Sequence record: AF299308.1
Source of the DNA: Escherichia phage phiX174
DNA length: 5,369 nucleotides
Direction: 5' to 3' (one strand)
Part shown: positions 1,001 through 3,963 of the stretch, in pieces
Layout of the letters: every line of letters begins with the position of its first letter
Position numbering within the stretch: position 1 is the stretch's first letter
Notes under the pieces: generated by a model
What the model was told of the DNA's origin: nothing
Seen by the model: the letters and a program-made list of their open reading frames with translations, nothing else
Database searches by the model: none
Program-made: the position numbers and the translations under genes

Positions 1001-2284
1001 ATGTCTAGTATTCAAACTGGCGCCGAGCGTATGCCGCATGACCTTTCCCATCTTGGCTTCCTTGCTGGTCAGATTGGTCGTCTTATTACCATTTCAACTA
1101 CTCCGGTTATCGCTGGCGACTCCTTCGAGATGGACGCCGTTGGCGCTCTCCGTCTTTCTCCATTGCGTCGTGGCCTTGCTATTGACTCTACTGTAGACAT
1201 TTTTACTTTTTATGTCCCTCATCGTCACGTTTATGGTGAACAGTGGATTCAGTTCATGAAGGATGGTGTTAATGCCACTCCTCTCCCGACTGTTAACACT
1301 ACTCATTATATTGACCATGCCGCTTTTCTTGGCACGATTAACCCTGATACCAATAAAATCCCTAAGCATTTGTTTCAGGGTTATTTGAATATCTATAACA
1401 ACTATTTTAAAGCGCCGTGGATGCCTGACCGTACCGAGGCTAACCCTAATGAGCTTAATCAAGATGATGCTCGTTATGGTTTCCGTTGCTGCCATCTCAA
1501 AAACATTTGGACTGCTCCGCTTCCTCCTGAGATTGAGCTTTCTCGCCAAATGACGACTTCTACCACATCTATTGACATTATGGGTCTGCAAGCTGCTTAT
1601 GCTAATTTGCATACTGACCAAGAACGTGATTACTTCATGCAGCGTTACCGTGATGTTATTTCTTCATTTGGAGGTAAAACCTCTTATGACGCTGACAACC
1701 GTCCTTTACTTGTCATGCGCTCTAATTTCTGGGCATCTGGCTATGATGTTGATGGAACTGACCAAACGTCGTTAGGCCAGTTTTCTGGTCGTGTTCAACA
1801 GACCTATAGACATTCTGTGCCGCGTTTCTTTGTTCCTGAGCATGGCACTATGTTTACTCTTGCGCTTGTTCGTTTTCCGCCTACTGCGACTAAAGAGATT
1901 CAGTACCTTAACGCTAAAGGTGCTTTGACTTATACCGATATTGCTGGCGACCCTGTTTTGTATGGCAACTTGCCGCCGCGTGAAATTTCTATGAAGGATG
2001 TTTTCCGTACTGGTGATTCGTCTAAGAAGTTTAAGATTGCTGAGGGTCAGTGGTATCGTTATGCGCCTTCGTATGTTTCTCCTGTTTATCACCTTCTTGA
2101 AGGCTTCCCATTCATCCAGGAACCGCCTTCTGGTGATTTGCAAGAACGCGTACTTATTCGCCACCAGGATTATGACCAGTGTTTCCAGTCCGTTCAGTTG
2201 TTGCAGTGGAATAGTCAGGTTAAATTTAATGTGACCGTTTATCGCAATCTGCCGACCACTCGCGATTCAATCATGACTTCGTGA
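1001..2284 (+). CDS. F: Major capsid protein F, 427 aa
   Basis: ORF track 1001..2284; translation [28 protein letters not shown]... matches phiX174 F with several substitutions; GAGG Shine-Dalgarno at 990-993. Confidence 0.95.
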
Positions 2285-2379
2285 TAAAAGATAACGCCGA
2301 AGCGGTAAAAATTTTAATTTTTGCCGCTGAGGGGTTGACCAAGCGAAGCGCGGTAGGTTATCTGCTCAGGAGTTTAATC
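2285..2379 (+). promoter_or_regulatory. F-G intergenic region (95 nt) with two hairpins; corresponds to the region carrying the primosome assembly site (n'/PriA recognition) for complementary-strand synthesis in phiX174
   Basis: Non-coding spacer between F stop (2282-2284) and G start (2380); contains a long imperfect palindrome at 2301-2328 and a GCGAAGC mini-hairpin motif at 2343-2349; AGGAG Shine-Dalgarno for G at 2368-2372. Confidence 0.5.
2301..2328 (+). terminator. AT-rich palindromic hairpin (about 12-bp stem including one G-T pair, 4-nt loop) after gene F; candidate TF terminator/stabiliser and part of the PAS structure
   Basis: agcggtaaaaat-ttta-atttttgccgct: positions i and j pair where i+j=4629, from 2301/2328 inward to 2312/2317. 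Confidence 0.5.
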
Positions 2380-2907
2380 ATGTTTCAGACTTTTATTTCT
2401 CGCCATAATTCAAACTTTTTTTCTGATAAGCTGGTTCTCACTTCTGTTACTCCAGCTTCTTCGGCACCTGTTTTACAGACACCTAAAGCTACATCGTCAA
2501 CGTTATATTTTGATAGTTTGACGGTTAATGCTGGTAATGGTGGTTTTCTTCATTGCATTCAGATGGATACATCTGTCAACGCCGCTAATCAGGTTGTTTC
2601 TGTTGGTGCTGATATTGCTTTTGATGCCGACCCTAAATTTTTTGCCTGTTTGGTTCGCTTTGAGTCTTCTTCGGTTCCGACTACCCTCCCGACTGCCTAT
2701 GATGTTTATCCTTTGAATGGTCGCCATGATGGTGGTTATTATACCGTCAAGGACTGTGTGACTATTGACGTCCTTCCCCGTACGCCGGGCAATAATGTTT
2801 ATGTTGGTTTCATGGTTTGGTCTAACTTTACCGCTACTAAATGCCGCGGATTGGTTTCGCTGAATCAGGTTATTAAAGAGATTATTTGTCTCCAGCCACT
2901 TAAGTGA
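2380..2907 (+). CDS. G: Major spike protein G, 175 aa
   Basis: ATG at 2380 preceded by AGGAG; translation [36 protein letters not shown]...EIICLQPLK* matches phiX174 G. The ORF track extends it to a GTG at 2281, which is not the real start. Confidence 0.95.
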
Positions 2908-2915
2908 GGTGATTT

Positions 2916-3899
2916 ATGTTTGGTGCTATTGCTGGCGGTATTGCTTCTGCTCTTGCTGGTGGCGCCCTGTCTAAATTGTTTGGAGGCGGTCAAGCCGCCT
3001 CCGGTGGCATTCAAGGTGATGTGCTTGCTACCGATAGCAATACTATAGGCATGGGTGATGCTGGTATTAAATCTGCCATTCAAGGCTCTAATGTTCCTAA
3101 CCATGATGAGTCCGCCCCTAGTCTTGTTTCTGGTGCTATGGCTAAAGCTGGTAAAGGACTTCTTGAAGGTACGTTGCAGGCTGGCACTTCTGCCGTTTCT
3201 GATAAGTTGCTTGATTTGGTTGGACTTGGTGGCAAGTCTGCCGCTGATAAAGGAAAGGATACTCGTGATTATCTTGCTGCTGCATTTCCTGAGCTTAATG
3301 CTTGGGAGCGTGCTGGTACTGATGCTTCCTCTGCTGGTATGGTTGACGCCGGATTTGAGAATCAAAAAGAGCTTACTAAAATGCAACTGGACAATCAGAA
3401 AGAGATTGCCAAGATGCAAAATGAGACTCAAAAAGAGATTGCTGGCATTCAGTCGGCGACTTCACGCCAGAATACGAAAGACCAGGTATATGCACAAAAT
3501 GAGATGCTTGCTTATCAACAGAAGGAGTCTACTGCTCGCGTTGCGTCTATTATGGAAAACACCAATCTTTCCAAGCAACAGCAGGTTTCCGAGATTATGC
3601 GCCAAATGCTTACTCAAGCTCAAACGGCTGGTCAGTATTTTACCAATGACCAAATCAAAGAAATGACTCGCAAGGTTAGTGCTGAGGTTGACTTAGTTCA
3701 TCAGCAAACGCAGAATCAGCGGTATGGCTCTTCTCATATTGGCGCTACTGCAAAGGATATTTCTAATGTCGTCACTGATGCTGCTTCTGGTGTGGTTGAT
3801 ATTTTTCATGGTATTGATAAAGCTGTTGCCGATACTTGGAACAATTTCTGGAAAGACGGTAAAGCTGATGGTATTGGCTCTAATTTGTCTAGGAAATAA
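2916..3899 (+). CDS. H: Minor spike / DNA pilot protein H, 327 aa
   Basis: ORF track 2916..3899; Gly/Ala-rich N-terminus [31 protein letters not shown] and Gln-rich coiled-coil-like middle match phiX174 H; GAGG Shine-Dalgarno at 2906-2909. Confidence 0.95.
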
Positions 3900-3937: not shown

Positions 3938-3963
3938 GCCTCCAAAATCTTGGAGGCTTTTTT
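3938..3963 (+). terminator. Rho-independent terminator after H (TH): 8-bp stem GCCTCCAA/TTGGAGGC, 4-nt loop, then TTTTTT running directly into the A start codon
   Basis: Perfect inverted repeat 3938-3945/3950-3957 followed by six T at 3958-3963; the 3' arm contains the GGAGG Shine-Dalgarno for gene A (3953-3957). Confidence 0.7.

Follow-up and report, generated by a model that had tools for sequence, protein, structure and literature searches.

The DNA analysed in this work (hereafter the window; 5369 nt, GenBank AF299308.1) is a complete genome of coliphage phiX174, and our subject is its spacer between gene F and the spike gene G, which holds the origin of complementary (-) strand synthesis with the binding site of the host protein PriA and, on the mRNA, the transcription terminator T_F. 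Gene F corresponds to the open reading frame (ORF) 1001..2284 and gene G starts with ATG 2380, leaving a spacer of 95 nt (window 2285-2379). The spacer of the laboratory ancestor AF176034 spans 110 nt, and alignment of the two revealed that exactly 15 nt are gone and two bases are substituted. A first-pass annotation, made from the letters of the sequence, had estimated a shortening of about 15 nt, with the junction between gataaaag and ataacgcc; the alignment to the ancestor bears out the size as well as the junction, and the remaining coordinates of that annotation (for a palindrome, a GCGAAGC motif and an ORF beginning at GTG 2281) also proved correct. The missing ancestral bases are TGAGTGTGAGGTTAT, ancestor 2293-2307, and owing to an AT microhomology the deletion can be written as ancestor 2291-2305 through 2293-2307 (2-nt ambiguity). 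Two coordinate systems are used throughout, those of the window and of the ancestor, and the compared set consisted of 14 AF2993xx genomes together with the ancestor and the window, which were aligned and every difference listed. The features of the spacer and its borders are collected in Table 1.

Table 1. Features of the F-G spacer and its borders, in window coordinates
Feature	Position	Strand	Description
F stop codon TGA	2282..2284	+	ORF 1001..2284; 8 nt from the base of the origin hairpin vs 23 nt in the ancestor
Leftover 5' flank TAAAAGAT	2285..2292	+	Junction 2290-2292 / 2293; same junction in AF299306 and AF299307
44-nt hairpin	2293..2336	+	100% identical to ancestor 2308-2351; complementary (-) strand origin / PriA hairpin; T_F hairpin on the mRNA
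GACC	2337..2340	+	3' arm of a predicted 4-bp outer helix; partner deleted, bases freed; 2338-2340 join the second hairpin
Second hairpin	2338..2358	+	Ancestor 2353-2373; ACC/GGT stem around GCGAAGC (2343-2349); sequence unchanged
Substitution T to A	2360	+	Ancestor T2375A; T-rich tract directly 3' of the second hairpin; TTTTCTGCTT to TTATCTGCTC
Substitution T to C	2367	+	Ancestor T2382C; one base 5' of AGGAG, the Shine-Dalgarno sequence of G (2368-2372)
Upstream extension of the G frame	2281..2379	+	GTG overlapping the F stop (GTGA); would add 33 residues before the G Met
Spike gene G	2380..2907	+	175 aa; same ATG as the reference (2395..2922 in reference records)

A search of phage records retrieved AF299306 (isolate CMMhi) as the top match, with 99.9% identity, while ordinary phiX174 records reached ~99.0%. 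The series AF299300-AF299314 is mentioned merely as an unpublished chemostat study (PMC2935103; PMC3606162 Table 2), and the isolate names imply a branching design in which C gave rise to CG and CM, each of these to lo and hi lines, and each of the latter to C and Mhi lines. All derived changes of C, CM and CMMhi are present in the window, nested as expected for a member of the series, together with seven private events (T988C, A1250C, A2982C, G3063A, G3429A, T4580C, and an A inserted after ancestor 3961), and we therefore place the window as sister to CMMhiC; it probably fills 'CMMhiMhi', the one position left vacant in the design. The branch from CM to CMMhi acquired the 15-nt deletion together with T2375A and T2382C, and all three were kept in CMMhiC and in the window. 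Accordingly, CMMhi (AF299306) and CMMhiC (AF299307), both of them Wichman-lab chemostat lines, display the same 15-nt junction and the same two substitutions as the window, with 100% identity over 196 nt spanning the spacer; of the changes peculiar to CMMhiC, a 27-nt deletion between genes J and F among them, the window has none. A separate site in this tree, A3438G (ancestor position), arose in C, is A again in CMMhi, the window and CGGloMhi, and G again in CMMhiC; this looks like a condition-dependent reversal, the A-bearing lines having all been selected under 'Mhi'.

A second deletion of the same stretch was found elsewhere in the series. On the branch from CG to CGGlo, 20 nt (ancestor 2288-2307) were lost independently, and the loss was kept in CGGloC and CGGloMhi. 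As aligned, the 15-nt and 20-nt deletions share their 3' end, between T2307 and A2308, and both are flanked by 2-nt microhomologies (AT...AT and AA...AA, respectively), an arrangement that would be typical of replication slippage. These observations bear on a concern of the first-pass annotation, namely that the true spacer has the full 110 nt and that the shortening is a sequencing or assembly artefact. The identical junction in AF299306 and AF299307, separate deposits of one lineage, means that three separately deposited genomes have it in common, which argues against an assembly error; in addition, the three genomes of another lineage carry a different deletion of the same stretch. Nothing was found in favour of an artefact, to which we give virtually no credence.

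Deletions at this place occur in only 5 of the 190 phage-database records matching the region and derive from two events, and the other examined matches keep 110 nt. When viral, metagenome and genome collections were searched for spacers of 0-25 nt between TCGTGATAA and the hairpin, the full 20-nt stretch was present in all 210 matches (187 contigs), one of them with a G to A change; most of these matches appear to be contamination from the phiX sequencing control and hence carry little information on natural diversity. As for the wider presence of phiX174 in databases, well over 100 public assemblies labelled as unrelated bacteria, metagenome-assembled genomes or metagenomes contain complete or partial phiX174; its sequence also lies inside the 24,953-nt record of 'Mycolicibacterium phage J1' (MZ417522.1), and the metagenome contig FUFK010037421.1 (327,964 nt) holds many tandem phiX174 copies. 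The phiX174 sequence in unrelated assemblies is almost certainly carry-over of the sequencing control. A literature search for an account of F-G deletions found none, the alleles having been public in GenBank since ~2000.

The 15-nt allele persisted through two further selection phases, including host and temperature shifts, and the stretch is therefore non-essential, as the phage remained viable throughout. It is nearly certain that both parts of this first conclusion hold together, i.e., that the window is a chemostat descendant of phiX174, from the CMMhi lineage, and that the deleted stretch is non-essential. The suggestion of the first-pass annotation that the deletion marks a part of the spacer dispensable for PAS function stands as far as a viable phage is concerned, given the persistence of the allele and the loss of 20 nt in a second lineage, but probably not in the sense of inert DNA, since the stretch is conserved in wild phages and holds T2305, as described below. 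Moreover, 'dispensable' is valid for laboratory chemostat conditions only, the window being no natural isolate.

A further consequence of the deletion concerns the reading frame of gene G. In the ancestor two upstream TGA codons, 2293-2295 and 2299-2301, close this frame, and both lie within the deleted 15 nt; their removal gives rise to the ORF 2281..2907 (208 aa, GTG start), in agreement with the first-pass annotation, which had ascribed the open frame to the deletion. It is conceivable that the deletion acts on G synthesis, either by exposing the G start on the mRNA or through an N-terminally extended G initiated at GTG 2281. The frame from this GTG to the G ATG is open solely through the deletion, and the GTG overlaps the F stop codon (GTGA), where ribosomes have just terminated on F; in addition, T2382C adjoins the Shine-Dalgarno sequence of G, and a later change of CGGloMhi, T2389C, falls between this sequence and the ATG. 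However, the lineage with the 20-nt deletion has a TAA that closes the G frame again, so that the extension is not common to the two parallel events, and no Shine-Dalgarno sequence precedes GTG 2281. On both grounds the 33-residue extension is treated as a by-product of the deletion and not as a gene. Such an addition to a capsid spike protein would probably be harmful, and the predicted accessibility of the G Shine-Dalgarno sequence and AUG flips with the sequence context (nine variants folded in four contexts). Taken together, an effect through G synthesis seems very improbable.

The deletion ends at the first base of a 44-nt hairpin formed by a 21/21-nt inverted repeat (2293-2313 / 2316-2336). 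Its core, a 12-bp stem with a 4-nt loop, is the palindrome at 2301-2328 that had been reported as retained. Folded as single-stranded DNA (ssDNA), the hairpin reaches -13.1 kcal/mol (z = -4.9 vs shuffles) with a predicted pair probability of 0.85-0.97, and this probability stays at >= 0.8 in every variant folded. The recognition site of protein n' was reportedly recovered by Shlomai and Kornberg in 1980 as a nuclease-resistant fragment of ~55 nt that is said to contain a 44-nt hairpin, which we take to be the one present in the window. Record MN385565 annotates positions 2308..2351, equivalent to window 2293-2336, as rep_origin 'Complementary (-) Strand Origin of Replication', and according to a 2026 saturation-mutagenesis preprint the hairpin is a PriA binding site, overlaps ori(-) and at the same time is the T_F terminator (doi 10.64898/2026.07.25.740675); the earlier assignment of a primosome site to this spacer is thus in accordance with both sources. 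The same preprint describes the hairpin at 2353-2373 as symmetrically sensitive to mutation and located upstream of a poly-U tract, and reports that 39 substitutions of the 5' stem (2308-2326) of the origin hairpin increase fitness and that none does so in its 3' stem, where substitutions were neutral or harmful, a pattern its authors read as better PriA access (doi 10.64898/2026.07.25.740675). The deletions directly adjoin this 5' stem on its 5' side, the only side affected.

With respect to what defines a complementary-strand origin of the phiX174 type, the window presents the element on the viral (+) strand between F (1001-2284) and G (2380-2907), with a hairpin that is identical in sequence and foldable; the full flank of the reported n' fragment and of the primosome binding site that takes in nt 2305 is incomplete, ancestor 2293-2307 being gone with nt 2305 and a GGTT arm described below. 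The second hairpin is likewise unchanged in sequence, and the Shine-Dalgarno sequence of G (2368-2372) is intact; the claim that both hairpins are kept agrees with the folding results. The motif GCGAAGC was confirmed at 2343-2349, as its single + strand match; with 0.79 matches expected by chance for a 7-mer, its occurrence is not above chance, and the predicted probability of the corresponding mini-hairpin is 0.01-0.02 under folding parameters that do not model it. An Rfam scan of window 2150-2500 at a permissive threshold yielded no credible family, the sole match being PrrF with 19 bits against a cut-off of 90 (E = 0.6).

Conservation of the spacer was assessed in five wild phiX-like phages (S13, NC1, NC56, WA10 and ID22) plus the ancestor, a set in which 8.8% of the sites are variable genome-wide and 25.7% at the third codon positions of F and G. 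Relative to this third-position rate the spacer varies little (3 of 110 sites variable, P ~7e-11), and the part corresponding to ancestor 2285-2307 is also conserved (1 of 23 sites variable, P ~0.01). Within it, T2305 was changed to G in both Salmonella 43 C chemostats as well as during one more experiment, a change read by Brown et al. (2013; PMC3606162) as lying 'within the primosome binding site', and we confirmed T2305G in HM753676 and HM753709. The Salmonella 43 C regime probably resembles the 'Mhi' condition, judging from a count of environments. The conservation among wild phages and the recurrent change at T2305 indicate that the deleted stretch is probably not functionless, and that the deletion more probably modulates the element than removes inert DNA. 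On its own account, T2305G turns GAGGTTAT (ancestor 2300-2307) into GAGGTGAT, a strong Shine-Dalgarno-like sequence with no start codon within the 15 nt that follow; judged from its letters, this might possibly be a ribosome-holding site near the base of the T_F hairpin.

Two natural or laboratory variants of the origin hairpin itself are also on record. Among the wild isolates examined, the sole variation within the 44 nt is a GA to TC change at 2314-2315 of NC56, in the 5' arm, by which the internal GA/GA loop gives way to two Watson-Crick pairs (partners G2344 and A2345) and the stem becomes fully paired. The laboratory line EF380019 (isolate 100A90) has C2312T in the 5' stem together with C2377T; the latter lengthens the T tract past the second hairpin, the opposite direction to T2375A of the window.

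Folding predictions suggest how the deleted stretch may interact with the hairpin. In the ancestor, GGTT (2302-2305) is predicted to pair with GACC (2352-2355), forming an outer helix of 4 bp that extends the origin hairpin across a 2-nt bulge, with probabilities of 0.44-0.67 as ssDNA and 0.77-0.85 as RNA. These drop to 0.15-0.25 and 0.09-0.19, respectively, with T2305G, and both the 15-nt and the 20-nt deletion are predicted to abolish the helix. Loss of the outer helix would thus be the one effect common to T2305G and the two deletions, and it fits the beneficial substitutions of the preprint in the 5' stem. In parallel, the second hairpin, whose predicted ssDNA probability is 0.06-0.19 in the ancestor, reaches 0.56-0.69 in the window (three sequence contexts), and the deletion, T2375A and T2382C each raise this value.

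From these predictions a mechanism based on PriA access can be put forward. The deleted stretch would provide the 5' arm (GGTT, 2302-2305) of an outer helix which, through GACC 2352-2355, would act as a clamp at the foot of the origin hairpin; upon loss of this arm, the 3' base of the hairpin would become single-stranded and the ssDNA would shift to a clean two-hairpin form. Such a form might resemble a fork-like junction, easier for host PriA to recognise, and easier recognition could speed up the conversion of incoming single strands to duplex, an advantage that would pay when many genomes compete in one cell, as in high-multiplicity chemostats. A mechanism of this kind would also account for wild phages keeping the stretch. 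Brown et al. argue similarly for the F-G spacer and for the H-A spacer (PMC3606162). We propose PriA access as such only tentatively, as a model whose chances we would put somewhat below even; the explanation that we consider best overall, in which a deletion in this lineage was selected via origin access, comes close to an even chance.

Whether the deletion was selected at all is a separate matter, and here we consider selection likely. The contrary view holds that the deletion is neutral or nearly so, i.e., that it arose by slippage at a 2-nt microhomology, took away the one part of the spacer free of any required element, and hitch-hiked with beneficial mutations. The branch from CM to CMMhi indeed accumulated 20 events, many of them parallel with other high-temperature lines and thus plausible drivers; every large deletion of the data set falls between genes, which is what lethality of coding deletions would predict; and the deleted state is confined to the 5 of 190 database records mentioned above, from two events. 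Against neutrality, two deletions that arose independently and share their 3' end both rose to isolate-level frequency in large populations, wild isolates conserve the stretch, T2305 was altered in parallel in at least three other experiments, and the allele was retained through the later host and temperature shifts. On balance a neutral deletion appears improbable.

Several considerations nevertheless weigh against the explanation we prefer. Over the whole tree the enrichment of events in the spacer is weak and not significant (5 of 140 events vs 2.9 expected, P = 0.16), as would also suit a neutral deletion; the CM to CMMhi branch does have 3 of its 20 events in the spacer (P = 0.0075), but this branch was picked post hoc out of 15. 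With an annotated element nearly everywhere in the spacer except at ancestor 2285-2307, two viable deletions at that place could reflect constraint alone. The outer helix comprises 4 bp and a bulge, is a thermodynamic prediction, and might hardly survive under a coat of SSB. For the 20-nt deletion, the predicted probability of the second hairpin is inconsistent (0.40, 0.10 and 0.08 in the three contexts). Finally, the same hairpin is a terminator, and an effect at the RNA level fits all observations about equally well.

This RNA-level alternative states that the changes weaken T_F and let more transcription read through into G and H. It is known that the proximity of a stop codon affects intrinsic terminators. 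The deletion shortens the distance between the F stop and the hairpin from 23 to 8 nt (to 3 nt with the 20-nt deletion), so that a ribosome terminating at this codon would lie over the 5' arm and impede folding of the hairpin; on the RNA the outer helix would be lost too, and T2375A and T2382C remove two U from the U-rich tract beyond the second hairpin (UUUCUGCUU in the ancestor, UAUCUGCUC in the window). Both the overlap of T_F with the 44-nt hairpin and the position of the second hairpin upstream of the poly-U tract (doi 10.64898/2026.07.25.740675) speak for this possibility, as do the modest strength of T_F, which stops just 20-40% of transcription and is therefore tunable, the accumulation of three spacer changes on one branch, and the tract change from UUUCUGCUU to UAUCUGCUC itself. 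There is also a precedent, as the 27-nt J-F deletion, by which the T_J hairpin is lost, occurred on three branches (CG, CMMloC and CMMhiC), and the window has T988C; this recurrence indicates that chemostat lines repeatedly trim non-coding structure. More generally, about forty putatively adaptive substitutions or indels affect regulatory positions, terminators included (Wichman & Brown).

Nonetheless, if a weaker terminator were the advantage, substitutions in the 3' stem should be beneficial too, yet they were neutral or harmful (doi 10.64898/2026.07.25.740675), and the second hairpin is predicted to form more readily with the three changes of the window, an effect that would promote termination at this site. 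The laboratory line EF380019, with its C2377T, has acquired a longer U tract. Of the two features expected of T_F, a GC-containing hairpin and a U-rich tract, the hairpins are present in the window and the tract has two U fewer; a simple consensus scan detects a terminator neither in the window nor in the ancestor, and with consensus promoter and terminator scans alike returning nothing in both sequences, they provide no contrast between them. We regard a weakened T_F as a doubtful but serious competitor, and PriA access is slightly favoured over it on three grounds: each of the three spacer changes is predicted to shift the ssDNA towards the two-hairpin form, the predicted stabilisation of the second hairpin would work against a weaker terminator, and two independent groups explained neighbouring changes through PriA.

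Additional changes of the window affect non-coding or structured positions outside the F-G spacer. The private substitution T988C (window 988) lies in the T-rich tail of the T_J terminator, changing CCCCTTACTTG to CCCCTTACCTG. The private 1-nt insertion at window 3944-3947 (ancestor 3959-3961) lengthens the loop of the T_H hairpin, from GCCTCCAAATCTTGGAGGC to GCCTCCAAAATCTTGGAGGC; this terminator hairpin overlaps the ribosome-binding site of gene A and the pA region. In gene H, an in-frame 3-nt deletion inherited from CM (ancestor 3007-3009, window 2980-3002) leaves a protein of 327 aa vs 328 and shortens the loop of a perfect palindrome in the coding sequence, from GGAGGCGGTCAAAAAGCCGCCTCC to GGAGGCGGTCAAGCCGCCTCC.

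Returning to PriA access and the outer helix, a broader and more speculative view, to which we assign a rather low probability, is that the 20-odd bases between the F stop and the origin hairpin act as a conserved 'brake' which, by means of the outer helix, would limit access to the ori(-)/T_F hairpin. Wild phiX174 would keep the brake, and crowded culture at high multiplicity may select for its loss, whether by T2305G or by the 15-nt or 20-nt deletion. If this were true, origin firing in the wild phage would be deliberately sub-maximal, and the stretch would offer a defined cis element for the study of within-cell competition between viral genomes.

The element itself is already known, being the phiX174 complementary-strand origin and PriA site plus T_F, and no new kind of system is involved. 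What is new is a natural-experiment map of its 5' boundary, where two independent deletions halt at the first base of the 44-nt hairpin; given that both are viable, everything between the F stop and that base can be lost without killing the phage. Wild conservation, chemostat changes and beneficial 5'-stem substitutions all point to a tunable 5' side of the origin/terminator hairpin, which is relevant to the design of minimal or refactored phiX174 genomes and offers a means of testing which of the two, strand conversion or transcription read-through, is the target of selection in crowded cultures.

Compared with the phiX174 complementary-strand origin of the reference (2308-2351), the window has the 44-nt hairpin with the same sequence and in the same place between F and G, and the hairpin at 2353-2373 is likewise identical; it differs in the absence of the 15 nt directly 5' of the hairpin, which include the outer-helix arm and position 2305, and in the two substitutions 3' of the second hairpin. 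A parallel is the 20-nt allele of CGGlo (AF299303), CGGloC (AF299311) and CGGloMhi (AF299312), which affects the same stretch, ends at the same base and likewise arose in a chemostat line. Unlike the allele of the window, it reaches 5 nt further 5', leaves 3 nt beyond the F stop, comes without T2375A and T2382C, is not a multiple of three and so does not extend the ORF, and arose under a different condition ('Glo'). T2305G changes a base of the deleted stretch and would, by prediction, disrupt the same outer helix, and it arose mainly with Salmonella at 43 C; it is, however, a point change that leaves the spacer at 110 nt and creates the Shine-Dalgarno-like GAGGTGAT, which the deletion does not. 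Finally, the 27-nt J-F deletion (ancestor 964-990) of laboratory-evolved phiX174 resembles the F-G deletions in being recurrent, intergenic, from the same experiment and associated with a terminator hairpin (T_J), but it removes the hairpin itself and is absent from the window, whereas the F-G deletions halt at the edge of theirs.

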